Shown here in pieces: positions 5,533 through 62,199 of a stretch of DNA of 64,000 bases. This DNA is from an uncultured Rickettsiales bacterium (lineage in GTDB: Bacteria; Myxococcota_A; UBA796; UBA9615). Under the pieces are notes generated by a model. That model was not told the origin of the DNA, did not search any database, and saw only the letters and a list, made by a program, of their open reading frames with translations. Position numbers and translations under genes: made by a program. The stretch lies in NCBI GenBank assembly GCA_964490445.1, contig CAZBDA010000011.1:2252-66251 (forward strand), written 5' to 3'. How positions within the stretch are numbered: position 1 is the first letter of the stretch; each line of letters starts with the position of its first letter.

Positions 5533-5550
5533 CGACTCGTCCTTGTCTGC

Positions 5551-7161
5551 CTAGAAGCGGGCTACGCCGAAACTGTTGGGTCTCAACGCGCGGCAGTCCG
5601 CTTCCTGGCTGGTTGCCAGCGTAAACGCCAGGACACGGCGGGTGTCGCGTGGATCGATGAGTCCATCGTCCCAGACCCTCGCCGTTCCGAACAGGGCCCC
5701 AGCCTCCTTGTCGAGCTTGTCGCGCAGCTCTCCGGCCATGTAGGCGAGCGCCTCTTCCTCCAGGTTCATGCCCTGGCGCGCAAACTTGGCGCGGGTAATG
5801 ATCTCCATGACCTTGGCAGCCTGGGAGCCGCCCATCACAGCGACCTGGGCGTTCGGCCAGGCGAATATGAAACGGGGGTCAAACGAGCGACCGCACATGC
5901 CGTAATTGCCCGCTCCGTAGCCGCCGCCGAGGATGATGGTGATCTGCGGCACCGATGCGTTGGCCACCGCCTGGATCATCTTCGCGCCATGCTTGATGGC
6001 ACCCTTCTGTTCGGCCTCCCTGCCGACCATGTAGCCGGTCGTGTTCTGCAGGTAGACGATGGCGACCCCGGACTGGCAGCACAACTGGATGAACTGGGCG
6101 GCTTTTGTCGCCCCTTCCGGCTGGATGGGGCCGGCGTTGCCGACGATGCCGATGCTACGACCTTCGATGGCGGCGTGGCCGCACACGGTGTCGGAGCCAT
6201 AGCCCGCCTTGAACTCCAGGAAGTCCGAGTCGTCGACGATGCGGGCGATGACCTCGCGCACGTCGTAGGGATGCCGCGTATTGACGGGGACGATGCCGCA
6301 CAATTCGTCGATGTCGTAGCGCGGCGGTCGGCACGACGCTGCCGTCGGCGACCGGTCCCATGGCAACTTCTCTACCAACTCGCGGGCCAGGTGAAGGGCG
6401 TGCCCGTCGTCCTCTGCGAGGTACTCCCCGAGGCCAGAGATCGTGGCGTGCATCTCGGCGCCACCCAGTTCCTCGTCAGTAGCCTCTTCGCCGATGGCAG
6501 CCTTGACCAGCGGCGGCCCGGCCAGGAACACCTTCGCCTTGCCGCGAACCAGGACCACGTAGTCACTCAGACCAGGAATATAGGCCCCACCTGCGGTCGA
6601 GGACCCGTGCACGATGGTGATCTGGGGGATGCCTGCCGCCGACATCCGCGCCATGTTGCAGAACACCTTTCCGCCCTCGACGAACAGCTCGCTCTGGTAG
6701 GCCAGGTTGGCGCCGCCGCTCTCGACCATGGTGACGATCGGCAGCTTGTTTTCGATGGCGATCTGCTGCGCACGCAACGTCTTCTTGAGACCCATGGGCG
6801 AGGTCGTCCCCCCCTTGATGGCGCTGTCGCTGGCAACCACCAGGCAGCGAACGCCGGCGACAAAACCGATGCCGATGACATTGCCGCCACCCATCGCCTT
6901 GTCGCCACCGACATCGTCGTGCATCTTCAGCCCCGCCAGGCTGGACAGTTCCAAAAAGGGCATGCCCGGATCGAGAAGTTGGTCCACCCGCTCTCGGGGC
7001 ATCAGTTGACCACGCTTCTCGAACCTGCCGCGGCGCGTCTCGCCGTAGGCCCGGACATTCTCCTCCAGCTCCCGGTAGGCCTCGACCAACTGCAGCATTG
7101 CAGCGCGATCGCTCGCGTACTGCTCACTGCGGGTATCAATACTGGATTCGATGACGGGCAT
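5551..7161 (-). CDS. Acyl-CoA carboxylase beta (carboxyltransferase) subunit, geranyl-CoA carboxylase AtuC-like
   Basis: FEKRGQLMPRERV, FLELSSLAG, SAIKGGT, HGSSTAGGAY, GGAEMH, WDDGLIDPRDTR. Start placed at MPVIESS. As recalled, closer to AtuC than to MCC-beta. Confidence 0.88.
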   Translation of the reverse strand: MPVIESSIDTRSEQYASDRAAMLQLVEAYRELEENVRAYGETRRGRFEKRGQLMPRERVDQLLDPGMPFLELSSLAGLKMHDDVGGDKAMGGGNVIGIGFVAGVRCLVVASDSAIKGGTTSPMGLKKTLRAQQIAIENKLPIVTMVESGGANLAYQSELFVEGGKVFCNMARMSAAGIPQITIVHGSSTAGGAYIPGLSDYVVLVRGKAKVFLAGPPLVKAAIGEEATDEELGGAEMHATISGLGEYLAEDDGHALHLARELVEKLPWDRSPTAASCRPPRYDIDELCGIVPVNTRHPYDVREVIARIVDDSDFLEFKAGYGSDTVCGHAAIEGRSIGIVGNAGPIQPEGATKAAQFIQLCCQSGVAIVYLQNTTGYMVGREAEQKGAIKHGAKMIQAVANASVPQITIILGGGYGAGNYGMCGRSFDPRFIFAWPNAQVAVMGGSQAAKVMEIITRAKFARQGMNLEEEALAYMAGELRDKLDKEAGALFGTARVWDDGLIDPRDTRRVLAFTLATSQEADCRALRPNSFGVARF

Positions 7162-7225
7162 AGCGACTCGGCGGGAATCGTACTCGCTTTCGACGATGCG
7201 ATCGACCCGTTGGCCTTCGCAGCAC

Positions 7226-8266
7226 TCAGCAACCCGCCGGGCGCCGTGCCAATGCACGCAGACCAACCCGGTGGCGACGCACTCGCGCACGCCACTGGCT
7301 GGGCTCGAGACCACCGAGTTCAGCCACCAGCCGATTGCTGCAACGACGGCGGGCAATGCTACCGGGCAGATCGAGGACTGCCGCCCCCTGGGCCGCCGCC
7401 ACCACCAGCGGCAACAGCAGGCGTTGGCGCGGAGTCCAGGACGCCGCGAGACCTCTACCGCCGCTACCCTGCACGGCGAACAGTCCGTGGCGCGCGAGGG
7501 TCCACAGGGGAGATGCCAGCAGCCAACTCTTCGGTAGGTGTGTCACTGCGACTCGCTGCCTGTTGCGCTCCACGAGAAACACCTTGCGCAGGCTGAGCGC
7601 TCCGAACGAAGCGCCCACAGCGTGACGTACCACCGCACTCGGGACGTACCTACAGCAAAGCCCGAGGCGGGCGGCCCGCAGCGACAGATCAGCGTCCTCA
7701 CCGTAGCCAAAGTAGCGCCCGTCGAGCGCGCCGATCCGGCTCAGGACGGAACGACGGATAAGCACCGCCGCACCAGAGAACAACAGCACGTCTTCCTCCT
7801 CGAGGTAGCGCCCAGCCGCCGGCTCACCGCGACCACGACACCAGTTGAGCCCGTCCGGGTAGAGGCCATGACCACAATTGTCGAGGTGGTCCGGACGGTC
7901 GCGCAGCAGCAGCCGGGCTGCAGCAATGTCGGCGCCACCACGCAGCGCTGCGACCAGTTCGCCCAGGCAGCGACTCTCGACCTCGGCATCGGGATTCAGC
8001 AACAGCAGGAACTCGCCGCGCGCAACCGCCAGACCAGCATTGGCACCCGTGGCGAAGCCCTGGTTGCGGGCAAGGCGAACGACCCGCATCGGCAACTGCC
8101 CTGAGCTGTTCTGCCACTGCGTCAACGCAGCATCGACGCCACCATCGCTGGAACCGTTATCCACGAGTACGATCTCGAGTTGCCGATACTCCTGGCCCTG
8201 GAGCGCCTCGACGCAGCGCTGCAGGTCCTCGCAGCCGCGGTAGTGCACGATGACTGCCGACAGCAA
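7226..8266 (-). CDS. Glycosyltransferase family 2
   Basis: VLVDNGSSDG, NQGFATGAN, LLLNPDA, FSGAAVLIRR, YGEDADLSLR. Start codon uncertain. Confidence 0.88.
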   Translation of the reverse strand: MLSAVIVHYRGCEDLQRCVEALQGQEYRQLEIVLVDNGSSDGGVDAALTQWQNSSGQLPMRVVRLARNQGFATGANAGLAVARGEFLLLLNPDAEVESRCLGELVAALRGGADIAAARLLLRDRPDHLDNCGHGLYPDGLNWCRGRGEPAAGRYLEEEDVLLFSGAAVLIRRSVLSRIGALDGRYFGYGEDADLSLRAARLGLCCRYVPSAVVRHAVGASFGALSLRKVFLVERNRQRVAVTHLPKSWLLASPLWTLARHGLFAVQGSGGRGLAASWTPRQRLLLPLVVAAAQGAAVLDLPGSIARRRCSNRLVAELGGLEPSQWRARVRRHRVGLRALARRPAGC

Positions 8267-16864: not shown

Positions 16865-17938
16865 TCAGCCGCCAACCTCGAGCGCAAAGGCCGAGGCGCC
16901 CCAGGCCCGCTGCACCTGGACAGCAGCATGGCGCTCGACCAGGGCGAGCACCGTTCCACCGCCACCTGCGCCAGTGATCTTCGCCGCCAGAGCACCGGCG
17001 GCGAGAGCAACTCGAACAGCCTCCCGGTCGGCATCCCACACCACGCCCAACTGCTCAAGACATGCCTGCTGCTCCATCATGGCCTGCGCCAGTCCCGGCA
17101 AATCGCCCGAGGCCCAGGCGGAGCGACCGATGCGACTCCAGCGACCCATCTCCGCGATCGCCCGAACCAGGGTCGGCTCGGCACCGAGGCGCTGCCGAAC
17201 ACCCTCGACCAGGTCGCGGGTGGGGCAACTGCTCGCCTGCGGACGAAGCACCAACACAATCGGCGGCAGACCCTCCAGGGCCGTGGGATGAATGCCCTTC
17301 TCGAACCAGACCGGCTTCTCGAGGGTAGACACCGTGTGGTCAATGCCCGATGGCTGGCCGTGGAACATGCGTTCGACCGCAGCCGCAGCGAGGACGACCC
17401 GCTCGGTGTCAGGCGCCTGCCCATACCAGCACAGCAGCGCTCGCCCGAGCGCCGTGCCGAGTGCTGCCGAAGTGCCCATGCCCGACTGCAGACCGCCGGA
17501 ACGCACAGCAAGACGCAGCGGCAGCGGCAGTTGCAGGCCCAGCGCCTGGGCGGCAGTGCCCAGGGCACGGAAGACATCCGCCCGCGCACCTTCGGGGGCA
17601 CGCTCATCGAGGGTGATACTGATGGGCGGCACCTGTTGGTCACCGACAGAAGGCATGGCCTGAGTCGCACCGCCTCCTCCCGCCAACTGCAGATCCTCGG
17701 GATCAATCTGCAAACCCACCTGGCTGCTGATCTGGGCTGCGGCAAAGTCCATGGGGCCCCAGCCGGCACCCGGCTCAGCCAACACCACGGACAGGCGGTT
17801 GGTCGACAGAGGCAAGGCGAGTGCAGGCTCGCCGTAGACCACCGCATGCTCACCGAGCAGGATCAGCTTGCCGCAGGCTGTCGCCACGACGGGCCGATGA
17901 CCCGGAGCTGTATCTGGTAGATCAGAAGAGGTGGTCAT
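16865..17938 (-). CDS. mvk: Mevalonate kinase
   Basis: GKLILLGEHAVVYG, GMGTSAA, HGQPSGID, AKITGAGGGG. Start moved to MTTSSD. Confidence 0.88.
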   Translation of the reverse strand: MTTSSDLPDTAPGHRPVVATACGKLILLGEHAVVYGEPALALPLSTNRLSVVLAEPGAGWGPMDFAAAQISSQVGLQIDPEDLQLAGGGGATQAMPSVGDQQVPPISITLDERAPEGARADVFRALGTAAQALGLQLPLPLRLAVRSGGLQSGMGTSAALGTALGRALLCWYGQAPDTERVVLAAAAVERMFHGQPSGIDHTVSTLEKPVWFEKGIHPTALEGLPPIVLVLRPQASSCPTRDLVEGVRQRLGAEPTLVRAIAEMGRWSRIGRSAWASGDLPGLAQAMMEQQACLEQLGVVWDADREAVRVALAAGALAAKITGAGGGGTVLALVERHAAVQVQRAWGASAFALEVGG

Positions 17939-18917
17939 CGTGAAGTCTTGCCCCCGGTCCGGGACGATTTTCGAGTATTTCGGCTCGCGGGGCCAGCTTG
18001 TCGATACGCCGGCGTAGTTCGGGAGCATCCTTGCTCTCGCACAGGATGTGCACATTCGGCCCGGCATCGAGGGTGAAGTACACCGGCATGCCATCTTCCT
18101 CGCGCCAACTGCGCACTGCCTGCATCAAGGCCACCGTGCCCGGCTGCAGGTACAGCGCCGAAGGCTGGCCACTCATCATGATCCCCTGCACTTCCATGGC
18201 CTCGTGCTCGACGATCTCGCCGAACACCTGGAACTCACGCTGAGCCAGGGCGCCCTTCAGCGCGAGGATGCGGGCAGGCAACAGCTTCTGCCGTTCCGCC
18301 ATGAAAGGGTGGGCGCTCGCAATGCGGTGCCCCTCGGAGCTGGAAATCACCTTCGGGCTCCGCGAGACCAGGACGACCAGGTCGGTGAGATCCCAGTGGT
18401 CCGCGGGGCAGAACTGCTGTGAGACCGAACCCAGGTCGTCTTCTCCCGCGGTCCACTCCACGAAACCACTTTGAATCGACCGACAGGCGGAACCGCTGCC
18501 GCGTCGCGCCCAGCGAGTCATCTCGGTTTCGCTGGGGAGGTCTTCACCAAAGGCGCCCAGCGCGGCGCTCGCGAGCGCCGCGAACCCCGAGGCCGAAGAT
18601 GCAATCCCGGTACCGGCCGGAAAGGAGTTCACCGACGCCACCCGGGCATACATGCGGTACCAATCCGCACGGATCTTGTCGAGGTAGCGGGAAATTCGCA
18701 CGCCACGACCGTCGAGGACCCGCTCCCCTTCCAGGTAGATCTCGTCCTGCCGGAGCGTCGGATCCCACTCGACGGTAGTCGTGGTGACGGCAGCCGACAG
18801 GTTCATCGAGATGGAATCGTTCAGAGGCAGGTTGCAGTCGAAGTCCCGCTTACCCCAGTACTTGATGAAGGCGATGTTCGAGCACGCCGTCGCGCTGGCA
18901 CACATTCGATCGGTCAC
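17922..18917 (-). CDS. mvaD: Diphosphomevalonate decarboxylase
   Basis: NIAFIKYWGKRD, LPLNDSIS, GIASSASG, RRGSGSACRS, SSSEG, FTLDAGPNVH. Confidence 0.95.
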   Translation of the reverse strand: MTDRMCASATACSNIAFIKYWGKRDFDCNLPLNDSISMNLSAAVTTTTVEWDPTLRQDEIYLEGERVLDGRGVRISRYLDKIRADWYRMYARVASVNSFPAGTGIASSASGFAALASAALGAFGEDLPSETEMTRWARRGSGSACRSIQSGFVEWTAGEDDLGSVSQQFCPADHWDLTDLVVLVSRSPKVISSSEGHRIASAHPFMAERQKLLPARILALKGALAQREFQVFGEIVEHEAMEVQGIMMSGQPSALYLQPGTVALMQAVRSWREEDGMPVYFTLDAGPNVHILCESKDAPELRRRIDKLAPRAEILENRPGPGARLHDDHLF

Positions 18918-19897
18918 GGTATCTCCTCCCGCTGCAAGCCGCGCGGTTCGACCCTCACATCCAGCACGTCGAGGCCGAGCTCGGTCGCGGCGCTAGCAGC
19001 TTGTTCCGGCTGCTCTGCGAGGATCAACACGCAGTCCCCCCCACCGGCACCACTGAGACGAACCCCGAGGACGCCAGCACAATTTCGTAGCCTCTCTACC
19101 AGTTCTGCGAGCTCCGCGGGAACAGCACCCAATGTCTCGAGCAAGCGCTGTCCTTCCCCCATCGCCGCACCCAGGCCGAGCGAGTCCCCCGATTCAAGCA
19201 TCGAGATACCACGCCGTGCCCGAGAGCCTATCTCCGCGTAGAGGGGATGACCGGGGGCAACGCCCCTACGCACATCTCGGAGCATCTCGGCGGGCGACGC
19301 CTTGCGGCGAGACCAGCCGACTACCCAGTGCAGGGGCGGACTGGCAGGCGGCTCGACCCGCTGCATCGGCACCTCCGCCGAAGCCTCGAACACCACGTAG
19401 CCGCCAAGCAACTGAGTCGCGACGTCATATCCTGAAGCCGCACCCTGAAGCTGCTTCTGGGCGGCATGGACCTCGGTGAAGATCGCCGAAGCCGGGCAGT
19501 CCTCGCCGCTCAGATAGCGCAGCGCTGCGGCCGCCGCCAGGGTCGAGGCCGACGATGAACCCATTCCCCAAATCGGTGGAAACTCCGCATCAAAACGAAG
19601 TGATAGGCCCCCACCAACTGCCGAGTGAGCACGCAGGACCGGCCACAGCAGGCTCAGCTCCGGAACCGGCGGTCGAGATTCGAGCAGCGTGGCCATGGGC
19701 ACTCGGACGGGAGCCGCAAACACACCGTCGGCCAGCAACTCGAGCGTGTCGCCGCCGGGCACCGTGCACGCCTCACAGGCAATACGGCGGTCCAGGCACA
19801 TCGCGATGGCAGGATGTCCCTCGAGCACCGCGTATTCACCAAAGAGCATGAGCTTGCCGGGCGCCGAACAACGAGCCCGGCGGGGGGCAGCGGTCAC
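18914..19897 (-). CDS. Phosphomevalonate kinase (GHMP family)
   Basis: APGKLMLFGEYAV, GMGSSSA, SGYDVA, LSGAGGGDC. The GEYAV signature and operon position separate it from mvk. Confidence 0.8.
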   Translation of the reverse strand: MTAAPRRARCSAPGKLMLFGEYAVLEGHPAIAMCLDRRIACEACTVPGGDTLELLADGVFAAPVRVPMATLLESRPPVPELSLLWPVLRAHSAVGGGLSLRFDAEFPPIWGMGSSSASTLAAAAALRYLSGEDCPASAIFTEVHAAQKQLQGAASGYDVATQLLGGYVVFEASAEVPMQRVEPPASPPLHWVVGWSRRKASPAEMLRDVRRGVAPGHPLYAEIGSRARRGISMLESGDSLGLGAAMGEGQRLLETLGAVPAELAELVERLRNCAGVLGVRLSGAGGGDCVLILAEQPEQAASAATELGLDVLDVRVEPRGLQREEIP

Positions 19898-21123
19898 GTC
19901 TCGTCCGCCGGATCCAGCTCGCGGCTCAACTCAATGTTGCGAGCGTGCAGCCTCATGTGACCCTTCTGAATCCCCTCGGTGGCCAGCGCACGCAGAGCAC
20001 CGAGGTTCTGCGCGAGACCCACCGCAACGATGATTCGCGCGAGGTCGCGGGCACGGGTCACACCGAGCAGACGCAGCGCAAAGCGAGCCGCTGGGTGCAG
20101 ACGCGTCACTCCACCGATCGTGCCCACCTGGAGCGGCAGCTCGAGTTCGCCGTAGAGGTCACCGTCCTCGAGCACCTGCCAGTTGGAGAGACTGCGGTAC
20201 TGGCCATCGCGGGCCGCCCAGGCGTGAGCACCTGCCTCGACCGCGCGCCAGTCGTTGCCGGTAACCACGACGATGGGGTCAATGCCGTTCATGATTCCCT
20301 TGTTGTGGGTAGCCGCACGGTAGGGGTCGTACCAGGCGAAACGAGCGGCCTCGACGATGCGCCGTGCCACCTCCGAACCGTCCAATTCCGCCACCGAGAG
20401 GTCGGCGGCCGAGATCCGGCAACTGGCCTTGAAGCGACGATGGGCGGCGAGATTCGACAGGATCCGCAAACCGACTCTGCCACCTGCCCAGCCGGCAATG
20501 TCGGCGGCAAGCTCCTCGCACATCGTGTTGACGACGTTGGCTCCCATGGCATCCACGGGATCCACCAGCAGGTGCACGACCAGCACGTGGCCCGCGCCGG
20601 TTTGCTCGGGCTCAAAAAGACGGCACTCGATGTCGCGACAACCACCGCCGGCAGCGACGAGCGCAGGGTCCAGCGCATTGGCCATCTCGATGATCTCGTC
20701 TCGACGTGACTGCACGGCGGCCACCGCCACAGCAGGGTCGGGCACATCGAGGACCTGCACCTGGCCGATCACGAGGTCCTCGAGCACCTCGGTAACAAAG
20801 CCTCCGGTGTTGCGAACCAGGCGCGCCATGTTGGACGCCGCCGCCACCACCGAACTCTCCTCCACCGCCATGGGAACCAGCACCTCGCGACCATCGACCA
20901 CGAAATTGACGGCGATGCCCAGAGGCAGGACGAAGGAACCGATGACGTTCTCGACAAAGCTGTCGAGCAGGCGTGGATCGAGCTTGCCATCCACCGCCAC
21001 GGCGATGGGGTCGCCCTCCTCCAGCCCAGCGGCGGCACGAGCCACCGCCTGCCTCTGCTCGAGGCCGAGACGATAGAAGCCAGGGATCCGGCTCGTCGGC
21101 ATGTCCTCGCTGGCATCGGTCAT
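19894..21123 (-). CDS. mvaA: Class II HMG-CoA reductase
   Basis: ENVIG, EESSVVAA, DAMGAN, THNKGIMNG, GNDWRA, EGIQKGHMRLH. ATG 21123 overlaps the idi stop. Confidence 0.95.
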   Translation of the reverse strand: MTDASEDMPTSRIPGFYRLGLEQRQAVARAAAGLEEGDPIAVAVDGKLDPRLLDSFVENVIGSFVLPLGIAVNFVVDGREVLVPMAVEESSVVAAASNMARLVRNTGGFVTEVLEDLVIGQVQVLDVPDPAVAVAAVQSRRDEIIEMANALDPALVAAGGGCRDIECRLFEPEQTGAGHVLVVHLLVDPVDAMGANVVNTMCEELAADIAGWAGGRVGLRILSNLAAHRRFKASCRISAADLSVAELDGSEVARRIVEAARFAWYDPYRAATHNKGIMNGIDPIVVVTGNDWRAVEAGAHAWAARDGQYRSLSNWQVLEDGDLYGELELPLQVGTIGGVTRLHPAARFALRLLGVTRARDLARIIVAVGLAQNLGALRALATEGIQKGHMRLHARNIELSRELDPADET

Positions 21124-22424
21124 CGGGACTCTCGAACCTCCAGTGCCCGCAGGCCACTCAGTCCGCCGGCACCGCTGCATAGCATTGCAATGCGAAGTTC
21201 CTCAAGGATTCGTCGCCCCAGCGCCAGGACAGCTTGCTGGCTATCGTCGGCAGCCCGGAAGAAAGGCAACGCCATTCCGGCGACATCGGCACCCAGGGCA
21301 ATGGCTCGTGCGACGTCGACGCCGTTGCGCACCCCGCCGGTCGCGATGATCGGAAAGTCGGCACCGAGGGCAGCCCGACACTCGCGCACGGCATCGCCGG
21401 TAGCCAGGCCCCAGTTGCGGAAGGTCTCGCCCATTGCCTGGCGCTCCCGGTCCTCGGCTCGCAGCCCTTCGATCCGCGCCCACGAGGTGCCGCCGCCACC
21501 GCCCACATCGATGGCAGTGGCCCCCATCTCCCGGGCCAACAGCGCCATTGCCGCAGACAGGCCGAAGCCCACTTCCTTGAGAATGACCGGTACTCCAACC
21601 GTAGCGATGAGTGCCTCGACCTTTACTCGCAGGTCCCGCCAGTCACGGTCGCCTTCGGGCTGCACCATCTCCTGGATCGGGTTGAGGTGCAGAGCCAGAG
21701 CATCCGCTTCGACTGAATCGATCAGGCGGCGGCAGTCGTCCACGGAGACTCCGTGGCTCAGCTGGATCCCACCGACATTGGCCAACAGCAGGATGTCTGG
21801 CGCCACGTCACGGACCTGGAACGTGGCAGCCAGCCCATCCTGCTCGAGCAGCACCCGCTGCGAGCCGAGTCCCATGGCCAGCCCGAGCTCCTGTGCGGCA
21901 TAGGCGAGTCGCTTGTTGACCTGTCCGGCCCGCGGCGAGCCACCCGTCATTCCAGCAATCATCAGCGGCGCTTCAAGATGCTTGCCGAGCAGCTCGGTGG
22001 CGAGGTCCATGTCCTCGGGACGCCCCTCGGGAAGAGCGACATGAGGCAGCGTCCAGCGCTCCCAGGCACGCTGCTGCAAGCCGGCCTCGACGTCCTGTTC
22101 GGCGACAATGGACAGGTGACTGTCCTTGCGACGGGAGCTGAGATGCCCCTGCAGGACACGTCCACTATCGCCCTGCCAGTCGAGCACGCTGAGACTCCAA
22201 CGAGTCATCCCTTCCGGCGCTCCCTCGACCTGTTCCCGCACCTGTGCGGTGCCGCTGGCCCGCGAACCCGGGGCGAGGAACAGGCGCAGCGTCACCTCGC
22301 TACCTGAGGTCAGCGGCTGCTCGCAGTCCACCAGCAGAGCGTCCGGCCCAATGGCAGGACACAAGCCCGACCTGCCGTCGATGCGAACAGGCAGGTAGGT
22401 GCCGAGGCGTACCAACTCCCTCAC
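21120..22424 (-). CDS. fni: Type 2 isopentenyl-diphosphate isomerase with an N-terminal PilZ-like domain
   Basis: RRKDSHL, GMTGG, GLGSQR, LHLNPIQE..QPEGD, KEVGFG, GGGGTSW, ATGGVRNG. Extra ~95 aa N-terminal; GTG start with GGAGG SD. Confidence 0.92.
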   Translation of the reverse strand: MRELVRLGTYLPVRIDGRSGLCPAIGPDALLVDCEQPLTSGSEVTLRLFLAPGSRASGTAQVREQVEGAPEGMTRWSLSVLDWQGDSGRVLQGHLSSRRKDSHLSIVAEQDVEAGLQQRAWERWTLPHVALPEGRPEDMDLATELLGKHLEAPLMIAGMTGGSPRAGQVNKRLAYAAQELGLAMGLGSQRVLLEQDGLAATFQVRDVAPDILLLANVGGIQLSHGVSVDDCRRLIDSVEADALALHLNPIQEMVQPEGDRDWRDLRVKVEALIATVGVPVILKEVGFGLSAAMALLAREMGATAIDVGGGGGTSWARIEGLRAEDRERQAMGETFRNWGLATGDAVRECRAALGADFPIIATGGVRNGVDVARAIALGADVAGMALPFFRAADDSQQAVLALGRRILEELRIAMLCSGAGGLSGLRALEVRESR

Positions 22425-24250
22425 GAGGAACCTCCGTCGCCGCTTGCCGCGCGCCCTTCACGGGCAGCGAGCATCCAGCGCACTCCCAGCCCGACAAGAA
22501 CCACCATCAACACAGCCCAGACCAGCCAGTCCGCGCGCGGCGTGTAGGGATTTGCCGGCCACATTACCGGTGAGAACAAGCCATACGCGACCACTGCCAA
22601 CCAGGCCGCCCAGCCACGACGGCCCTCGGGGGTCCGACCACGCCAGCCCAGGAGCAGCAGCAGACTCGCTACCAGCCCGCACAACTGCACGAACCAGTCA
22701 CCCCACCGCACGTAGGGTGTCAGCACCCGCACCTTCTTGACGTCGTAGACCAGCACGCCCCGCTCGAACACGCCGAGCGTGGCAACGAGCTGGCCGCGGG
22801 CATCAGCTACTGCACTGATCCCGGTGGTCGCCGCGCGCACCAACGGCACGCCGTACTGAGCGGCCTGCAGCACCGACAGCATCAGGTGCTGGTGGGGGCA
22901 GCCCGTGTCGCCGAACCAGGCGTCGTAGGTGATGTTCACCAGCAACTCGGCACCGCGATCGACACCACCACGCACGTAGCGATGGCGGATTGCCTCGTAG
23001 CAGATCAGGAACACGAAGTCGGCGGATGCTGTCTCGAAGACTGTCAGCCCATCGCCCGGGGCGAAGTTTCCGACGCCCTGGATCTTCTTGAGGATCGGGA
23101 TGCGATCCTCGAGCGGCATGAATTCGCCGAAGGGGAGCAGGATGTTCTTGTCGTAGGGCGGATCGGCGGCAAGTTCACCGGCTTCGCCCCGCGGGTAGAC
23201 CCGGAATGCGGAGTTGTAACTGGAAGGCTCTCCATCCGCGCCGCGCCGAACCAGGCCACCACCAGTCCACAACTCGGCACCAGTCACCTTGATGAGCTCG
23301 CGCACCCGGCGATTACGTCCCGACTTTGGGCTGCGACGGATGGCCCCCTCGGGCCAGATGAAGACGTCGATGTCGCCGTGCTCCTTCCAGGCCTGCAGGC
23401 TCAAGTCGACGAGATCATCGGCAATCGCCGACCGTCGATCAGCACGCCGCACGCCCAGGCTCTTTTCGCTCTTCGCCCTCTCGACCATCATGCTGCGACG
23501 CTTGAACACGTCCTGGTTGGCTTGCACCAGGGCGACCCGGAAGGTCTCAGCATCCTGCTCGGCAGCTTCGATCCGGCCCCCCTGGTACGCGGACCAACTC
23601 AGCGCGACCACCACGAAGAGCAGCCAGGCTCCCAGGTTGGTCAGCATGGCGCGGTCGATGAGCGGAAGCTCGGGGCTGGCGTGACGCTCCCACAGGTCGA
23701 CCAGGATGCAGTTGCTCAGCAGCATGAAGAACGAGATCCCGGCAACACCGGTCAGGCCAGTCACCAGGAAAAAGCTGCTGAGTTGGTACCAGGTGACGCC
23801 CTGGTAGTAAGGAAACAGCTGCGGATTGAGGTACTCGACCACCGCAAACCAGGCGGCGATTGCCAGCGGCCAATAGCCACGCGACACGCGGCGAATCGGC
23901 TCGAAGCCCCAAGCAAACACGGCCATGTAGAAGCCGAACGCCAGGGAGAACAGCAGCAGGCAGCCTGCTGCCAGCACCCACGGCAGGTTGGAGAAGGTCT
24001 CTACCGTGTAGATAATCCACGAGAAGATGCTCGCGTTGGCAGCAACGCCCACCAGCCAGCCAGCCAGCAGCGCGCGCCGCCCCTGCAGCTTGCTGAGCAC
24101 AAGCAGCGCCGGCACGAAGCCGACCAGGTGCAGCCACCACAGGTTCATCGGCGCCGAGCCCCAGCGCTGGAAGGCACCGGAACAAACCAGGGCAACAATG
24201 GCCAGCGCCACCTGCCATCGCCGCTGCTTGCTTTGGGAGGCTCCAGCCAT
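22421..24250 (-). CDS. lnt: Apolipoprotein N-acyltransferase
   Basis: N-terminal TM helices; nitrilase triad WPEG (E), YDKNILLPFGE (K), LICYEA (C); RAATTGISA. Confidence 0.93.
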   Translation of the reverse strand: MAGASQSKQRRWQVALAIVALVCSGAFQRWGSAPMNLWWLHLVGFVPALLVLSKLQGRRALLAGWLVGVAANASIFSWIIYTVETFSNLPWVLAAGCLLLFSLAFGFYMAVFAWGFEPIRRVSRGYWPLAIAAWFAVVEYLNPQLFPYYQGVTWYQLSSFFLVTGLTGVAGISFFMLLSNCILVDLWERHASPELPLIDRAMLTNLGAWLLFVVVALSWSAYQGGRIEAAEQDAETFRVALVQANQDVFKRRSMMVERAKSEKSLGVRRADRRSAIADDLVDLSLQAWKEHGDIDVFIWPEGAIRRSPKSGRNRRVRELIKVTGAELWTGGGLVRRGADGEPSSYNSAFRVYPRGEAGELAADPPYDKNILLPFGEFMPLEDRIPILKKIQGVGNFAPGDGLTVFETASADFVFLICYEAIRHRYVRGGVDRGAELLVNITYDAWFGDTGCPHQHLMLSVLQAAQYGVPLVRAATTGISAVADARGQLVATLGVFERGVLVYDVKKVRVLTPYVRWGDWFVQLCGLVASLLLLLGWRGRTPEGRRGWAAWLAVVAYGLFSPVMWPANPYTPRADWLVWAVLMVVLVGLGVRWMLAAREGRAASGDGGSS

Positions 24251-24261
24251 CGTGGCGGCGA

Positions 24262-24290
24262 CTGTTAGCACGGCCCGCAGACCTTGTCAG
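24262..24290 (-). promoter_or_regulatory. Putative sigma70-type promoter of the lnt-mevalonate operon
   Basis: Minus strand CTGACA-N17-TAACAG with TGc directly before the -10; 11 nt upstream of ATG 24250, no SD. Confidence 0.45.
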
Positions 24291-24359: not shown

Positions 24360-25040
24360 ATGACCACGATCAAGACGCGAGAGATCACCTGCCCTCTGTG
24401 CACAGAGGCGTTCGTGGGCTGGTCAGTACTGGTCGGTCCCGCGAGCGGTCCCCTGGCTTCGGACCTGCGTCGCTACCCCGAGGGGCAAGATCCCATTCCC
24501 AGGCAGCTCAATAGTTGCCCCGTTTGCGGCTACTCGGGCGAAGTGAGCGCCTTCGAGGAGTTCGCGCCGGAGCCGGATCGGCCCGTTGCCGGTGAAGACG
24601 CTAGCCTTCGCGAGCTGGTCGACCGCCATCTGCGGCCACACGCCGCCGAGTGCCATGGCAACCCAGCACTTCGCTACGAGCAGCACGCCCTGCTCGAAGG
24701 TTGGCTGGACAACGGGCCGCTACGCCAGGGCGATGCCTGGTTGCGCGCAGCCTGGATGCACGGCGATGCTGACCATGGCGAGGATGAGCGCCGCTGCAGG
24801 GAGCAGGCCCTGCGCTGCTACCGGCAGGGTCTCGATGAACGCAAGTGGCTGCGTCGCCGAGAAGACATGGTGGTGATCGCCTACCTGGTCGGCGAGCTGT
24901 GCCGACGCCTCGACCAGCGCGACGATGCACTGCGCTGGTTCGAACAGGCTGTCGCCTGGTCCTCGGGCCTCCAGCACATGCAGGAGCTGGTCGAACTCGC
25001 CGAGCGCCAGGCTCGCGACCCTCGAGACCTTGTGCGCTGA
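24360..25040 (+). CDS. DUF2225-like protein (two CxxC motifs plus helical TPR-like C-terminus)
   Basis: CPLC...NSCPVCGYS; AWLRAAW, YLVGELCRRL. Extended -10 TGcTACCCT at 24311-24319. Confidence 0.75.
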   Translation: MTTIKTREITCPLCTEAFVGWSVLVGPASGPLASDLRRYPEGQDPIPRQLNSCPVCGYSGEVSAFEEFAPEPDRPVAGEDASLRELVDRHLRPHAAECHGNPALRYEQHALLEGWLDNGPLRQGDAWLRAAWMHGDADHGEDERRCREQALRCYRQGLDERKWLRRREDMVVIAYLVGELCRRLDQRDDALRWFEQAVAWSSGLQHMQELVELAERQARDPRDLVR

Positions 25041-25086: not shown

Positions 25087-26184
25087 ATGAGCAACGCGAA
25101 CGATCTCTCCTTTCGGAATTGGCTCACACCGCGACTCGAGCGCGTCCTGGACGGCGGCACAATCGAGCGAACCGACGCTCTGCGCCTGCTACACGCCGAC
25201 GGTGCCGACTGCTTCGAATTGTTCGCCGCCGCAAACCGCATCCGGCAAGCCTTCCACGGCGACTCGATTCACCTGTGCTCCATCGTCAACGCAAAGAGCG
25301 GGCGCTGCTCGGAAGACTGCGGCTTCTGCAGCCAGTCGGTGCGCTTCCCCAGCGACATCCCAGAGTACGACCTGGTCGACACCGAGACGGTCCTGGCGCA
25401 CGCTCAGCGGGCAAAAGAGAACGCATCTCAGGCACTGGGCATCGTGGCAGCCTGGCGTGGGCTCAAGAAGGGGCCCGAACTGGATGGCGTACTCGAACGG
25501 ATTCGCGCCCTGGCCGCAGAAGAGGGCATCCACGCCGATGCGAGCCTCGGGCTCATCGACGACCCGGACATCCCCGACATGCTCAAGGACGCCGGCCTGC
25601 ACACCTATAACCACAACCTCGAGACCAGCCGGCGCCACTTCTCGACGATCTGCGAGACCCACTCCTATGACGACCGCATCGAGACCCTGAAGCTGATCAA
25701 GGGAGCCGGGATGCGCACCTGTAGTGGCGGCATCTTCGGCATGGGCGAAGAGCTCGAGGACCGCGTGGAGTTAGCCTTCCAACTGCGGGAACTCGAGGTC
25801 GATGTGATCCCCCTCAACTTCCTGAACCCCATGGAAGGAACTCCCATGGCGGGTCGGCCGCTGATGGAACCCATGGAGTGTTTGCGAACCGTCGCGATGT
25901 TCCGCTTCGTCAACCCGAAGACACACCTGATGGTCGCCGGCGGCCGCGAGGTGAACCTGCGCCACCTGCAGCCGCTGATGTTTGCTGCGGGAGCCGACGC
26001 GACCATGGCCGGCGCGTACCTGACCAGTGACGGGAACGCGGGACAGGACGACCTCGAAATGATTCGCGAACTTGGCCTCGACCATGGCCCCGTACAGCCT
26101 GCCTCGACACCGGAAGCGAGCCCTGCCACCGGCGCTGGCCGTCTGCAGGTGATCCCGCCGGGCACATCCCCACCCTCCTGTTGA
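25087..26184 (+). CDS. bioB: Biotin synthase-family radical SAM enzyme (atypical auxiliary-cluster ligands)
   Basis: NAKSGRCSEDCGFCSQS, YNHNLET, CSGGIFGMGE, IPLNFLNP, AGGRE, YLT. Confidence 0.88.
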   Translation: MSNANDLSFRNWLTPRLERVLDGGTIERTDALRLLHADGADCFELFAAANRIRQAFHGDSIHLCSIVNAKSGRCSEDCGFCSQSVRFPSDIPEYDLVDTETVLAHAQRAKENASQALGIVAAWRGLKKGPELDGVLERIRALAAEEGIHADASLGLIDDPDIPDMLKDAGLHTYNHNLETSRRHFSTICETHSYDDRIETLKLIKGAGMRTCSGGIFGMGEELEDRVELAFQLRELEVDVIPLNFLNPMEGTPMAGRPLMEPMECLRTVAMFRFVNPKTHLMVAGGREVNLRHLQPLMFAAGADATMAGAYLTSDGNAGQDDLEMIRELGLDHGPVQPASTPEASPATGAGRLQVIPPGTSPPSC

Positions 26185-38804: not shown

Positions 38805-39583
38805 GCCGCACGATCAGGGTCCTTCTCTGCGCTGCCCTGCTGTCGTCAGCAGGCGCGTCCGACAGCCAAGCGGAAGACCTCGGCATAAGCGCACACCTAC
38901 GAACTCTCGAGCAGGGCCGGCGCGGTGCGGACGTCCGAGTTCGCCTGGAATTGAACTGGCACGGACAGCCCGCCCGGTACATCCCTCTTGCGCCGGTCAT
39001 CGAGGTCGCGGACGGTGCGACCCTGCGACCAGGAGTGAGCCGCAGTTCCTTCGATGGCGAGAACACCCGCTGGTCCCACGACGCAGTGGTCAAGTTGCCC
39101 GACACGGCCGGCCCTTGGACGATTGGACCTGCGAAGATCACCATCAAGACACCGGGCCAGGCCGACCGCGAGCTCGCGGCCGCAGCCATTCGGACCGGCC
39201 GGCCCGGGAAAACACGGCGACTCGCTGGCCTGGCGGTGGGCAACGGCATCGTGCTCTCACTGGCCCTGTGGTTCGGCATCCTCCGCTACCGCCGTCTGCA
39301 CGCCGAAGAATCTGCGGGCGGGGACGAATTGAGCGAACTGATACGAAAAGCGGAAGCGGCGGCCTCCCAACTCGAAACGGGTGGCCCGCTGGAAGCCCTT
39401 CTCGAGGCTTTGCTGGCGGTTCGACTGGCCCTCGACGGGCAAGCTATGGAGAATGGCGCGCTGTGGACAGTCGCCGAGATTCAAGATCGGCTCGAAAGGG
39501 TTCGATTCGGCGGGGAAGAAATCCCCACCGACGAGTGTTTGCAGATGCTGCGCCAACTTGGCTCAGCAGCAGGTAACCGCTGA
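38801..39583 (+). CDS. Exported/membrane protein with a BatD-like beta domain
   Basis: Signal peptide; [16 protein letters not shown] resembles BatD repeats; TM helix near residues 145-165. ATGA overlap with dnaJ. Confidence 0.55.
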
Positions 39584-39623
39584 GCGCATAGGGCGCAACC
39601 AGCATGGGAGCGAAGACAGACCA

Positions 39624-40619
39624 ATGACTGAAGCAGCACATAACCTCGACCAGGTGCGCAGCGACCTCGAGCGGGTCAGCGGGCACTTCGCAGCACTGCG
39701 CGAAGAGATCGGCCGCGTCGTCGTCGGCCAGAACTACATGGTGGAGCGAATTCTCGTCGCTCTCCTCGCCGATGGGCACATTCTCCTGGAGGGTGTCCCA
39801 GGCTTGGCAAAGACCACCGCCGTACAGGCTGTCGCCGACGCCATCAAGACCACCTTCCAGCGCATTTCGTTCACTCCCGACCTGTTGCCTGCCGACATTC
39901 TCGGCACCCAGATCTACAACCCGAAGTCCGGTGATTTCTCTGTGAAGCAGGGACCTGTCTTCACCAACATCCTGCTTGCGGATGAAATCAACCGGGCGCC
40001 GGCCAAGGTTCAGAGTGCACTGCTCGAAGCAATGCAGGAACGGAAGGTCACGCTCGGCGATCAGCGTTTTGAGCTGCCCAGCCCCTTCCTGGTCCTCGCC
40101 ACGCAGAATCCCATCGAACAGGAAGGCACCTATCCGCTCCCCGAGGCCCAGGTGGATCGCTTCATGCTCAAGATTCGCGTCGAGTATCCGAGCCGCGACG
40201 AAGAGAAGGAAATCCTGCGCCGCTCCATCGACGGCTTCCCGGACCTGCACCCGGTAATCACCCCCGAGCAACTTCTCGAGGCACGCGAGGTAATCGACCG
40301 GATCCGCTTCGATGACAAGTTGGTCGACTACATCCTCGACCTCGTCGCAGCGACCCGCGACCCGAAGTCCGCAGGCCTCGACTCCCTGGAACCGCTGCTG
40401 GAATTCGGGGGCTCGCCGCGCGCAACCATTGCACTGCAGAAAACAGCGCGCGCCCATGCCTTCCTGGCAGGCCGCGCCTACGTCAACTCGGCAGACATCA
40501 AGACGATGGCGCCGGACGTGCTACGACACCGCATCGTGCTGAGCTACGAGGCTGAGGCCGAAGAGGTCGACGCCGACGAGATCGTTGCTCGTATTCTCGC
40601 TACGATCGCCGTGCCCTAG
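39624..40619 (+). CDS. MoxR family AAA+ ATPase
   Basis: LLEGVPGLAKT, RISFTPDLLPADILG, DEINRAPAKVQSALL, ATQNPIEQEGTYPLPEAQVDRF. Confidence 0.96.
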   Translation: MTEAAHNLDQVRSDLERVSGHFAALREEIGRVVVGQNYMVERILVALLADGHILLEGVPGLAKTTAVQAVADAIKTTFQRISFTPDLLPADILGTQIYNPKSGDFSVKQGPVFTNILLADEINRAPAKVQSALLEAMQERKVTLGDQRFELPSPFLVLATQNPIEQEGTYPLPEAQVDRFMLKIRVEYPSRDEEKEILRRSIDGFPDLHPVITPEQLLEAREVIDRIRFDDKLVDYILDLVAATRDPKSAGLDSLEPLLEFGGSPRATIALQKTARAHAFLAGRAYVNSADIKTMAPDVLRHRIVLSYEAEAEEVDADEIVARILATIAVP

Positions 40620-40652
40620 CGGCTCGGCCTCTCCGCCCCGGGCCTACTGACC

Positions 40653-41717
40653 ATGCCGACCGCAATCCTGGGTCCGCTACTCCTGGCTGCCGCCGGTGCC
40701 GCCGCGGCTACGCTGCTGGGTTGGCGCCTCGCGCTCTGGCAACGGCGACGCCTGGATGCCCGTGCGGCCCGTCACGCGGCACACCACGAGAGCGGGCGCT
40801 GGCTTCCCGACGGAGCCATGGGGGGAGCTCGCGGCGGTCTATCGGCAGAAATGCTCGCCCAGGTACGGCGCCTGCACATCACCACCGCCCACCAGGTAAA
40901 CGACCTGATGGCAGGAGAGTACTCCTCGGTCTTCAAAGGACGCGGCATGGAGTTCGAGGAAGTGCGCGAGTACGTGCCCGGCGACGACATCCGTACCATT
41001 GACTGGAACGTCACGGCACGGATGCAGACCCCCTACGTCAAGGAATTCCGCGAGGAGCGGGAGCTGGTCGTAATGATCCTGGTCGACATCTCCCGCTCGG
41101 GCGATTTCGGCACCACCGGCCGGCTCAAGAACGAGTTGGCAGCAGAGCTTGCCGCGACCCTTGCCTTCGCCGCGACCCGCAACAACGACAAGGTCGGTCT
41201 GCTCCTGTTCACCGATCGTGTCGAACGCTTCCTGCCCCCCAAGAAGGGGCGTGGCCACGTCTGGCGGGTAATCCGAGAGATTCTCGACTGCCAGCGCGAA
41301 GGCCAGGGAACTGACCTGGGCGAAGCGCTGTCCTTCCTGAACCGGGTAGTTCGGCGCAAAGCAGTGGTCTTCCTGGTCTCGGACTTCCTGGTCGAAGAGG
41401 ACTTCGAGACCCCTCTGCGAATCGCCAACCGACGCCATGACCTGGTGGTGTTCCGCATCACCGACCCGCGCGAACACAGCCTGCCCGACGTGGGTTTCGT
41501 CGCAGTAGAAGACGCCGAAGATGGCCGCCGAGCCTGGTTGGACACCAGCTCATCGAGAGTACGCAGTTCCTTTGCCGAAGAAGCCGTGCGCAGGTCACAG
41601 CAATTGAAGACGCGATTGAAGCGCCTGAAGGTCGACCTCGTGGAACTCTCGACCAGTGAAGACGTAGCACCACCGCTGACCCGTTACTTCCGGCAGCGGG
41701 AGCGGAGGATGCTGTGA
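40653..41717 (+). CDS. DUF58 domain protein (possible N-terminal TM extension)
   Basis: FKGRGMEFEEVREYVPGDDIRTIDWNVTAR, DISRSG, VSDF. Start could be later (MLAQVRRL). Confidence 0.92.
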   Translation: MPTAILGPLLLAAAGAAAATLLGWRLALWQRRRLDARAARHAAHHESGRWLPDGAMGGARGGLSAEMLAQVRRLHITTAHQVNDLMAGEYSSVFKGRGMEFEEVREYVPGDDIRTIDWNVTARMQTPYVKEFREERELVVMILVDISRSGDFGTTGRLKNELAAELAATLAFAATRNNDKVGLLLFTDRVERFLPPKKGRGHVWRVIREILDCQREGQGTDLGEALSFLNRVVRRKAVVFLVSDFLVEEDFETPLRIANRRHDLVVFRITDPREHSLPDVGFVAVEDAEDGRRAWLDTSSSRVRSSFAEEAVRRSQQLKTRLKRLKVDLVELSTSEDVAPPLTRYFRQRERRML

Positions 41718-42676
41718 TTCGTGCGGCCTCCACGTGGCTGCTGCTGCACTCGCTGCTGGTGGGCTGCGGGCAGGATGCACCTGCCACCGAGAGCGAGCCG
41801 GTGATCGTAACGGCACTGGTCGAGCGGGCCCAGGTCACCCCGGGGCGCCCCTTCGAACTCAGCGTCGAGGTGGACCGCCGCGAGGACGTCGCGTTCGAGG
41901 TCCCCGATGTCGGTGCCGGGATCAAGGGCCTGGTGATCATGGATATGCGCGAGGAAGGCCCCGAAACCGGAGGCGGAAGAGTCCTGACCCGCACCATCTA
42001 CAAGCTCAAGGCACCCCTCAGCGGCACTTACCTGGTGCCCGGCGTAGAGGGAGCCTGGAGCAGCGCTGATGGTGGCCGCGGCACGGCCGGCAGCGGACCC
42101 ATCTTGATCGAAGCGGCCCACGTCGCAGGCGAGGAAGGCTCGATCCATGGCGAGTTACGTGACCTGAAGCCTGCCCTCAAGCCGGCAATCAATACGACGC
42201 CACTGATCGTTGCCGGCGTGCTGGCCGCAATCCTGTTGCTGGCTCTCCTGGTGGCTGTCCGGCTAAGCCGCCGTGAGGCGGTCCAACGGACCAGGCCACC
42301 CCGCGAAGTTGCCCTCGAGGAGCTTCGTACACTGCGCCGCTCGGGCCTGATGACGGCGGCGGATCAGGGGCCATTCGCGTACCAGCTGTCCGCCATCTTG
42401 CGCCGCTACCTCGAAGCTGTGTTCGGCTTCCCAGCCTGGCGAATGACGACCGCTGAGTTGTTGCGGGCGATGCCCCCGGAACTGCTGCAGCGGCGAAAAC
42501 TGGAGCAATCCATTCGCTACGTCCTCGAGGCCAGTGACCTGGTCAAGTTCGCGGGCGAGCGGGTGCCGCAAGAGACGCTGGGCAGTTGGCTCCAAGATGC
42601 CACGACAGTCGTTCACGACACCGCACCGAGCAGTGGAGAAACGCAGGAGACGAGCGCAGCGGAGGCCGGACTATGA
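41714..42676 (+). CDS. Bat-operon membrane lipoprotein (BatD-like/DUF4381-like)
   Basis: Lipobox LVGC; LSAILRRYLE..FG..A..MTT.E; ASDLVKFA. Confidence 0.7.
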   Translation: MIRAASTWLLLHSLLVGCGQDAPATESEPVIVTALVERAQVTPGRPFELSVEVDRREDVAFEVPDVGAGIKGLVIMDMREEGPETGGGRVLTRTIYKLKAPLSGTYLVPGVEGAWSSADGGRGTAGSGPILIEAAHVAGEEGSIHGELRDLKPALKPAINTTPLIVAGVLAAILLLALLVAVRLSRREAVQRTRPPREVALEELRTLRRSGLMTAADQGPFAYQLSAILRRYLEAVFGFPAWRMTTAELLRAMPPELLQRRKLEQSIRYVLEASDLVKFAGERVPQETLGSWLQDATTVVHDTAPSSGETQETSAAEAGL

Positions 42677-43689
42677 GTGGTTGGAGTGCCTGGCGCTTTG
42701 CCTCCCCGCTGTACTTCACGCTGGTCGTGCTGTTGGTGCCGATTGTCTACGCCACGCTGGTGGGGGCGAGCCAGGGCCGGGTTCGGTTTTCGGCGCTGGC
42801 GCTGGTGCGGGCCACCCAAGGTGGGCGACATCGCCTGTTCCGCGTGTTGCCGCTGGCACTTCGCTGCCTGGGCGTGTTCTTCCTGGTGCTGGCTCTGGCC
42901 CGTCCACAGGGGGGCAACGTAACGCGAGAGGTCACCTCGGAGGGCACCGACATCATGCTGGTCGCCGACACATCGGGCTCCATGGAGGCAATGGACTTCA
43001 CCCTCGGCGGCAAACGAGCGACCCGACTCGACGTCAGCAAGAAGGTGATCCGCGACTTCATCTCTGAACGAGCGAACGACCGCATCGGACTGCTGGTGTT
43101 CGGCGAAGAGGCCTTCATTCAGTGCCCCAACACCATCGACTACGGCGTGCTGGTGAACACGCTGGAGGCGGTGAAGCTGAAGATGGCCGGTGACGGAACC
43201 GCGATCGGCACCGCCATTGGCGTCGGAGTCCAGCGCCTAAAAGACCTGCCCGGCCGGGCGAAGATCATGATCCTGTTGACCGATGGCGAGAACACCACGG
43301 GCATCCTGGAGCCACTCCAGGCGGCGCGTGCGGCGGCCACCTACGGCATCAAGATCTACACGATTGGCGTCGGTACCCAAGGTGAGGCGCCCTTCCTGGT
43401 TCCCGGCCTTCTCGGCATGGGCAAGCGCTTCCACTACCAGAAGGTGAGCCTGGACGAAGACAGCCTGAAAGCAATCGCGGAGGCCACCGACGCTCGCTAC
43501 TTCCGAGCGACGTCGACCGAGAAGCTCCAGGAGATCTATGCACTCATCGATCAACTGGAGAAGACCGAGGTCAAGGTCCGCGAGTTCACGGACTACCACG
43601 AGTTGTACAGCCTGGCCCTCTGGCCGGCCCTGCTGCTGCTCTTGCTGGAGCAGCTACTGCGTGCCACCTGGCTGAGGAGTCTGCCGTGA
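42673..43689 (+). CDS. batA: VWA-domain membrane protein BatA
   Basis: N-terminal BatA TM region, LALARPQ, DTSGSM MIDAS, LLTDGENT, KIYTIGVG. Confidence 0.88.
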   Translation: MSGWSAWRFASPLYFTLVVLLVPIVYATLVGASQGRVRFSALALVRATQGGRHRLFRVLPLALRCLGVFFLVLALARPQGGNVTREVTSEGTDIMLVADTSGSMEAMDFTLGGKRATRLDVSKKVIRDFISERANDRIGLLVFGEEAFIQCPNTIDYGVLVNTLEAVKLKMAGDGTAIGTAIGVGVQRLKDLPGRAKIMILLTDGENTTGILEPLQAARAAATYGIKIYTIGVGTQGEAPFLVPGLLGMGKRFHYQKVSLDEDSLKAIAEATDARYFRATSTEKLQEIYALIDQLEKTEVKVREFTDYHELYSLALWPALLLLLLEQLLRATWLRSLP

Positions 43690-62191: not shown

Positions 62192-62199
62192 GGCCCGCT

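Follow-up and report, generated by a model that had tools for sequence, protein, structure and literature searches.

A 64,000-nucleotide (nt) stretch of DNA from an uncultured marine Rickettsiales bacterium (contig CAZBDA010000011.1), referred to here as the window, carries a bioB gene whose product keeps only one of the four residues that ligate the auxiliary cluster of Escherichia coli biotin synthase, the Type I BioB. Judged from its sequence, the product is almost certainly a working biotin synthase. The favored explanation, which we consider fairly probable, is that this genuine BioB has an auxiliary site of Type II-like character, made up of Cys64, Asp151 and Cys212, which would most likely hold a cubane [4Fe-4S]-type Cys2Asp cluster with an open iron directed toward dethiobiotin. 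What the data show directly is membership in the BioB family, the equivalence of the residues, their conservation and the operon setting of relatives; we infer iron binding by Asp151, the cluster nuclearity and the origin of the sulfur. The Cys/Asp/Cys site is the signature of a large and widespread BioB group that has already been flagged in the literature.

Residues at the auxiliary-cluster site

Residue equivalences were derived from three independent alignments: a phmmer comparison with the Protein Data Bank (PDB) chains 1r30, 8vcw and 8vdw, a MAFFT alignment with E. coli BioB, and a Foldseek superposition of an AlphaFold model of the bioB product. The E. coli reference sequence used is 100% identical to the annotated bioB. 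All three alignments yielded the same equivalences, with Gly118, Asp151 and Met282 at the positions of the E. coli ligands Cys97, Cys128 and Arg260, and a cysteine kept at the position of Cys188. An original prediction, made by reading the sequence by eye, had described this replacement of three of the four Type I ligands, and the codon positions it gave for Cys64, Gly118, Asp151, Cys212 and Met282 were all exact. It had also noted that a proper alignment might find the ligands conserved at shifted positions. The ligands stay replaced under sequence, profile and structural alignment, and the agreement among these rules out a misalignment that masks shifted ligands. The residues concerned, with their counterparts in E. 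coli BioB and in the Type II BioB of Blautia obeum, are as follows:

25087..26184, forward strand: bioB open reading frame (ORF), 365 amino acids plus stop; radical S-adenosylmethionine (SAM) and BATS domains; 'Type G', Asp128 subclade
25270..25272, forward strand: His62, two residues ahead of Cys64 on the same β-strand; clade-specific conservation
25276..25278, forward strand: Cys64 (TGC), equivalent to E. coli Ser43 and to the B. obeum Type II ligand Cys52; predicted auxiliary-cluster ligand on strand β1
25306..25329, forward strand: CxxxCxxC (Cys74, Cys78, Cys81), the radical SAM [4Fe-4S] motif, present in every aligned homologue
25438..25440, forward strand: Gly118 (GGC), equivalent to the E. 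coli ligand Cys97 and to B. obeum Ser106; 37 residues past Cys81, with Leu and Ile flanks
25537..25539, forward strand: Asp151 (GAT), equivalent to E. coli Cys128 and B. obeum Cys138; predicted carboxylate ligand of the auxiliary cluster
25609..25611, forward strand: Asn175, equivalent to E. coli Asn151 (in YNHNL) and to the catalytically important B. obeum His161
25720..25722, forward strand: Cys212 (TGT), equivalent to E. coli Cys188 and B. obeum Cys198; the sole Type I auxiliary ligand kept
25930..25932, forward strand: Met282 (ATG), equivalent to the E. coli ligand Arg260 and to B. obeum Arg268; with Ala116, Val240 and Ala305 it makes up a non-polar surround

One further residue of the site, Ser153, aligns with E. 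coli Thr130 and B. obeum Ser140.

Structural work on Type II BioBs provides the closest point of comparison. Crystal structures of the enzymes from Blautia obeum (8VCW) and Veillonella parvula (8VDW) revealed a 4Fe-5S cluster held by Cys52, Cys138 and Cys198 (Lachowicz et al. 2024, PMC10813225). Cys64, Asp151 and Cys212 map exactly onto these three ligand positions. A Cys/Asp/Cys cluster related to Type II was one of several options raised in the original prediction; it is the option that the evidence favors, in that the residues do fall at the three Type II ligand positions, with their role as ligands predicted from homology. The overall relationship of the protein is also to Type II. The best phmmer matches in the PDB were the Type II BioBs 8vdw (1.7e-82) and 8vcw, with E. 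coli 1r30 next. The AlphaFold2 model (predicted local distance difference test [pLDDT] 87.4, predicted template modeling score [pTM] 0.88) superposed on 8vdw with a root-mean-square deviation (rmsd) of 1.2 Å and a template modeling (TM) score of 0.97, on 8vcw with an rmsd of 2.0 Å and on 1r30 with an rmsd of 2.5 Å, and identity in these superpositions was 40% to Type II versus 30% to Type I.

The unusual codons are genuine. Gene calling gave an identical protein on 10 contigs, drawn from several marine metagenomes, and contigs from two independent sequencing runs (X1 and X2) span the gene from end to end without a single difference, at word depths of 14.9 and 7.7; these observations rule out a sequencing or assembly error, which had been named at the outset as something that could undo the finding. 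Moreover, a change from Cys (TGY) to Asp (GAY) requires two base changes. A third run (X3) contains one contig of low word depth (3.8) with four clustered changes that amount to the exact reverse complement of the 8 base pairs (bp) at 25539-25546 and would convert DASL to EARI. The two deeper runs agree with the window sequence, and the 8-bp inversion is probably an assembly artifact. The bioB gene was absent from the RNA runs, none of which contains it.

The same residues recur throughout a clade. Among the 120 closest database homologues (51-93% identity), which carry names from Myxococcota, Planctomycetota, Verrucomicrobiota, Armatimonadota, Poribacteria and other groups, Asp151, Ser153, Asn175 and Cys212 are each found in all 120, Cys64 in 119 of the 119 aligned at that position, Gly118 in 115 and Met282 in 114. 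What had been framed as a peculiarity of one gene is therefore invariant across a large clade. Compared with 57 Type II sequences, the clade-specific positions are His62, Ala116, Leu117, Gly118, Ala121, Ala122, Trp123, Gly129, Asp151, Asn175 and Met282; the site of Asn175 is His in 57 of 57 Type II sequences. Cys189 is the only further conserved cysteine. Val replaces it in 12% of the clade, and Type II BioBs also have a Cys at this position, where it is not a ligand. The C-terminal Cys365, to which the original prediction had drawn attention, is a real residue that is shared with the nearest homologue only and lies in a disordered tail with a pLDDT below 50, and it was ruled out as a ligand on both counts.

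The clade fits a class that has been named. Lachowicz et al. sorted BioB motifs by the residue at position 97 into Type I (Cys), Type II (Ser) and Types G, A and D (PMC10813225). In the Type G motif, a Gly between hydrophobic residues takes the position of Cys97, 37 +/- 5 residues after CxxxCxxC (PMC10813225). The window protein has Leu117-Gly118-Ile119, with Gly118 37 residues beyond Cys81. Type G is heterogeneous, as the Gly97 sequences sampled here bear Cys, Asp or His at position 128, and the window BioB belongs to the subset with Asp, Asn and Met. The same study reported that the alternative motif types tend to have Cys43 and a low occupancy of Arg268, and that their structures "are of further interest" (PMC10813225). 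The Cys128-to-Asp change and the Asn at the position of His161 are not described in the main text of that paper, a literature search found no later characterization of Type G or Asp-type BioBs, and a 2026 review still counted only two BioB mechanisms.

Measured against the two characterized types, the protein agrees fully with neither. It resembles Type I in its fold, in the YNHNL motif with the counterparts of Asn151 and Asn153, in the counterparts of Asn222 and Thr292, in an AAW segment, and in Cys188. It differs from Type I in that just one of the four cluster ligands is kept (Cys97, Cys128 and Arg260 being Gly118, Asp151 and Met282), in that Arg95, Ser218 and Ser283 are replaced by Ala, Val and Ala, and in that Ser43 is Cys. 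The likeness to Type II extends from the closest solved structure and sequence to the presence of Cys at position 43, the lack of Cys at position 97, the Cys188 equivalent, Ser153 at the position of Ser140, and the Cys at residue 189. However, position 97 is Gly rather than Ser, only two of the three Type II cysteine ligands are present (Cys64 and Cys212, with Asp151 in place of Cys138), His161 is replaced by Asn175, Arg268 by Met282, and the Arg95 equivalent by Ala.

Evidence for biotin synthase function

With so many ligands changed, the protein could be a diverged BioB paralogue that catalyzes another reaction, either a different sulfur insertion or a radical reaction without sulfur. The changes affect three of the four Type I ligands, and there is a precedent in LipS1 and LipS2, which were once misannotated as biotin synthases. 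Family assignment argues strongly against this explanation. By Pfam, residues 72-230 of the product form a Radical_SAM domain and residues 242-331 a BATS domain, and the protein shows the features of a BioB, with CxxxCxxC and BATS on a full TIM barrel and Foldseek TM scores of 0.92-0.97 to BioB structures. It scored 377.6 bits against TIGR00433, the NCBIfam biotin synthase equivalog, clearing the cutoff of 225 bits by 150 bits. The runner-up family was PylB (64.8 bits), and the radical SAM models for PylB, HmdB, CofH, LipA, MqnE and LipS1/2 all gave 65 bits or less; the scores for LipS2 (20.8 bits, cutoff 270) and LipS1 (16.1 bits, cutoff 230) place the protein outside both of those families.

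The substrate site leads to the same conclusion. Residues at the dethiobiotin- and SAM-contacting positions (Asn175, His176, Asn177, Glu179, Arg197, Asn244 and Thr313) are invariant in the clade, including those that contact the ureido and carboxylate groups of dethiobiotin; the E. coli contact set, for comparison, is Asn151, Asn153, Asp155, Arg173, Asn222 and Thr292. Gene order in relatives provides further evidence. In four relatives with the same signature, CGDSN(C/V)CM, the genes bioF, bioA and bioD lie directly downstream of bioB on the same strand (L014, L089, L090 and L091, the last three being the members on the largest contigs examined), and in a fifth (L016) bioF and bioA lie ~2 kilobases (kb) downstream. 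Taken together, the bioBFAD operons with the same signature and the invariant contacts make it almost certain, from sequence, that the product is a working biotin synthase. They also disfavor the different reaction that the original prediction had offered as one option, and we consider a paralogue with another activity very improbable.

In the window itself, bioB is solitary among housekeeping genes, which counts in favor of the paralogue explanation. The neighbors are a mevalonate cluster, lnt, a DUF2225 gene, a gene for a PPC-domain protein, and genes for uridine kinase, HPF, lgt, groES/EL and dnaK. A tblastn search of the 64,000 nt with E. coli queries found no match to BioA, BioF, BioC or BioD at E <= 1e-8, in line with the initial observation that the window holds no other bio genes. 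The window does encode, at 3559-7356 on the reverse strand, a biotin-dependent acyl-CoA carboxylase pair consisting of a biotin carboxylase fused to a biotinyl carrier domain and a carboxyltransferase; because of this pair, the organism is expected to use or need biotin.

The neighborhoods of clade members also bear on the possibility that sulfur is supplied from outside the enzyme. ORFs within 6 kb of bioB were clustered across 17 non-redundant clade loci, and no helper gene recurred; only bioF, bioA and bioD did. In the window, a DUF2225 gene encoding a four-Cys zinc-ribbon protein (24360-25040, forward strand) ends 46 bp upstream of bioB on the same strand. It was ruled out as a conserved partner, as it is adjacent in the closest kin only, and three genes intervene in a relative with 70% identity (L005). 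In two relatives, the genes directly upstream of bioBFAD, on the same strand, encode a two-subunit 2-oxoacid:ferredoxin oxidoreductase (L089, 7139-9971; L090, 6975-9825). The oxidoreductase could supply the radical SAM enzyme with reduced ferredoxin locally, or the arrangement could be mere shared synteny.

The auxiliary cluster and the source of sulfur

Under the favored explanation, the [4Fe-4S] cluster at CxxxCxxC would cleave two SAM molecules, hydrogen would be abstracted at C9 and C6 of dethiobiotin, and sulfur would be inserted from a second cluster beneath dethiobiotin to give biotin. The auxiliary site would have Type II geometry, with Cys64 contributed by strand 1, Asp151 by strand 3 and Cys212 by strand 5, and with the carboxylate of Asp151 standing in for one of the three Type II cysteine ligands. 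Met282, Ala116, Val240 and Ala305 would form a hydrophobic cap in place of the arginines and serines that surround Type I and Type II clusters, and the catalytic His of Type II would be replaced by Asn175, as in Type I.

Replacement of a cysteine by an oxygen ligand on an iron-sulfur cluster has precedents: a serine ligates the sacrificial [4Fe-4S] cluster in lipoyl synthase, and an Asp ligates a [4Fe-4S] cluster in Pyrococcus furiosus ferredoxin and in DPOR. The predicted site resembles these in having a carboxylate or hydroxyl for one Cys on a cubane, and the cluster of lipoyl synthase donates sulfur. It differs from them in that their folds and sites are unrelated, and in that they keep three cysteines plus the oxygen ligand, whereas the window BioB has two cysteines.

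Variation at site 128 suggests that this position is one of a metal ligand. In the 150 nearest representatives of 50%-identity clusters, site 128 was Cys in ~105, Asp in ~19-21, His in ~15 and another residue in ~11, so that Cys, Asp and His together account for ~93%. In a rough neighbor-joining tree built with the signature columns removed, which is approximate, site 128 changed at least 25 times, and Asp appeared in several separate groups. Sequences with the signature CSDSHCCR are Type II at every other signature position and have Asp at site 128, which suggests that a carboxylate is tolerated in the Type II architecture. The near-exclusive use of Cys, Asp and His would thus be in keeping with the pattern expected of a metal ligand. 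Individual genome records illustrate the variation: site 128 is Asp in Haloarcula montana, His in Plesiocystis pacifica and His in Candidatus Brocadia, and an Omnitrophota example combines Cys43, Cys97 and Asp128.

The loci fetched in the course of this survey (L023, L027, L055, L079, L059, L085 and L040) held other variants. His was seen at site 128 in BioBs of Brocadia, Plesiocystis pacifica and Polyangia. The BioB of ammonia-oxidizing archaea has Glu43/Cys97/Asn128/Lys260 and lies within bioA/bioB/bioF/bioD clusters, and an Omnitrophota genome encodes a BioB with Cys43/Cys97/Glu128/Glu260. Among the representatives, BioB was also found in fusions (P0210, P0231, P0270, P0176, P0195, P0219 and P0251) of the types BioY-BioB, BioC-BioB, BioB-BioF, BioB-BioA and BioD-BioB; all of these bear the Type II ligand cysteines and His161 except BioD-BioB (P0251, ECASNVCR). 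An Asp128-type BioB joined to a BioF-like domain (P0122) was discounted as evidence of fusion, as its linker looks out-of-frame and the gene call is probably frameshift-merged.

The loss of the arginines can be set against what is known for E. coli BioB. The guanidinium of Arg260 hydrogen-bonds with Ser43, Arg95, Ser218 and Ser283, and Arg95 can hydrogen-bond with a bridging sulfide (PMC2804791). The clade counterparts of these four residues are Cys64, Ala116, Val/Ile/Met240 and Ala305; with Met282 at the position of Arg260, both arginines are gone and the pocket is non-polar. Arg260 is dispensable in E. coli BioB (PMC2804791), and Met at position 260 alone is therefore no sign of lost function. 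In Type II BioB, Arg268 stacks on the cluster without ligating it (PMC10813225). The loss of His161 has a more direct bearing on mechanism. This residue is 99% conserved in Type II BioBs and matters for catalysis, with an H161A variant ~15-fold slower (PMC10813225). Because His161 is absent from the clade, the Type II scheme, in which the His stabilizes a terminal sulfide, would not apply unchanged.

Several points weigh against the Cys2Asp cubane. The convergence of Cys64, Asp151 and Cys212 is predicted by homology to crystal structures, and two cysteines at the site are few for a cubane cluster. The Asn at the position of His161 may call into doubt the use of a terminal fifth sulfide as in Type II. 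Lachowicz et al. found AlphaFold models unclear on how the alternative motif types hold a 4Fe-5S cluster (PMC10813225). Lastly, no bioF, bioA or bioD stands beside bioB in the window.

The small number of cysteines has also been considered in relation to an external sulfur donor. In this alternative, the protein is a genuine BioB in which Asp151 is not a ligand and the auxiliary cluster is absent, unstable or only transient; sulfur would come from sulfide, a persulfide or a partner protein, and Asp151 would serve in acid/base chemistry or hydrogen bonding in place of the Type II His. Asp or His at site 128 is mostly paired with Asn at site 151, and Cys at 128 mostly with His at 151, which would fit a transfer of the acid/base role. 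Mycobacterial BioB is reported to require an auxiliary protein (PMC11099021), and even for Type II the source of sulfur is not settled in the literature. However, Asp replaces Cys in sequences that retain His161 as well, and interchange of Cys, Asp and His is a classic pattern for a metal ligand. The neighborhood data likewise speak against a dedicated donor, given that only the bio genes recur beside bioB and that the DUF2225 gene is adjacent in the closest relatives only. We consider an external donor improbable.

A third alternative, the strongest of the three, retains the ligands of the favored explanation and changes the cluster. A genuine BioB could carry a Type I-like sacrificial [2Fe-2S] cluster on Cys64, Asp151 and Cys212, to which His62 might add a fourth ligand; each turnover would use up a bridging sulfide, after which the cluster would be restored. 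In place of the His and 'SG' of Type II, the clade keeps the Asn151 and the 'AAW' segment (Ala121, Ala122 and Trp123) of Type I. His62 is His in 97% of the clade, whereas Type II has Asp, Glu or Ser at this position and E. coli has Gln41. His62 precedes Cys64 by two residues on one strand and so faces the same way; it may serve as an additional ligand or interact with Asp151. Only ~1/3 of other Asp128 lineages have this His, however, which weakens the case for a fourth ligand.

The habitats of the clade are also relevant to a [2Fe-2S] cluster. Type II BioB is reported from obligate anaerobes only, and in vivo it is highly sensitive to oxygen (PMC10813225). In contrast, many clade members come from largely oxic lineages and settings, including seawater, Verrucomicrobiota, Planctomycetota and Poribacteria. 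In L089, heme-copper oxidase genes were seen <=5 kb from bioBFAD. While these observations favor a [2Fe-2S] cluster over an extremely oxygen-sensitive Type II cluster, sequence and fold are nearer to Type II in both identity and rmsd, and the two arginines that contact the [2Fe-2S] cluster of E. coli BioB, Arg260 and Arg95, have been lost. A sacrificial [2Fe-2S] cluster is on these grounds unlikely, and the Cys2Asp cubane in a Type II-like site is preferred.

A broader proposal can be made around the Cys2Asp cluster, and we advance it tentatively, as a possibility that falls well short of an even chance. The clade may represent a third mechanistic class of BioB, derived from Type II, in which a Cys2Asp cluster, possibly with His62 in addition, sits in a hydrophobic, arginine-free pocket and is workable in oxygen-exposed bacteria. 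Such an enzyme would rely neither on the sacrifice of a 2Fe-2S cluster, as in Type I, nor on His-assisted transfer of a fifth sulfide, as in Type II.

Other window features and significance

Some further features of the window were noted away from bioB. At 16865-24271 on the reverse strand, a complete-looking mevalonate block lies directly upstream of lnt, the gene for apolipoprotein N-acyltransferase; it encodes HMG-CoA reductase, two GHMP kinases and diphosphomevalonate decarboxylase, together with an FMN_dh-family protein, probably a type 2 isopentenyl diphosphate isomerase. An 'aerotolerance' operon of MoxR, DUF58, BatA, BatB-like and BatD genes occupies 39381-47479 on the forward strand. 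At the end of the window (59508-63927, forward strand), three consecutive radical SAM genes encode a B12-binding protein, a SPASM-domain protein and a second B12-binding protein, and this trio has the look of a cluster for peptide or lipid modification that continues beyond the window.

The source of sulfur in BioB has been debated for decades. One solution was known until 2024, when Type II provided a second, and the 2024 study explicitly offered no explanation for the Gly, Ala and Asp motif types. The window bioB typifies the largest such group seen, which spans several phyla, occurs in bio operons and is common in seawater. The reading is drawn from sequence, and as the motif class had already been flagged, the finding is moderately rather than highly surprising. 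BioB is also the bottleneck in biotin fermentation, which gives the question a practical side. The ligand set of two Cys, one Asp, no Arg and no His161 is incompatible with either known mechanism unchanged, and it bears on a possible third solution to the problem of a sulfur-donating cluster and on how some bacteria of oxic habitats that have no Type I enzyme may make biotin.

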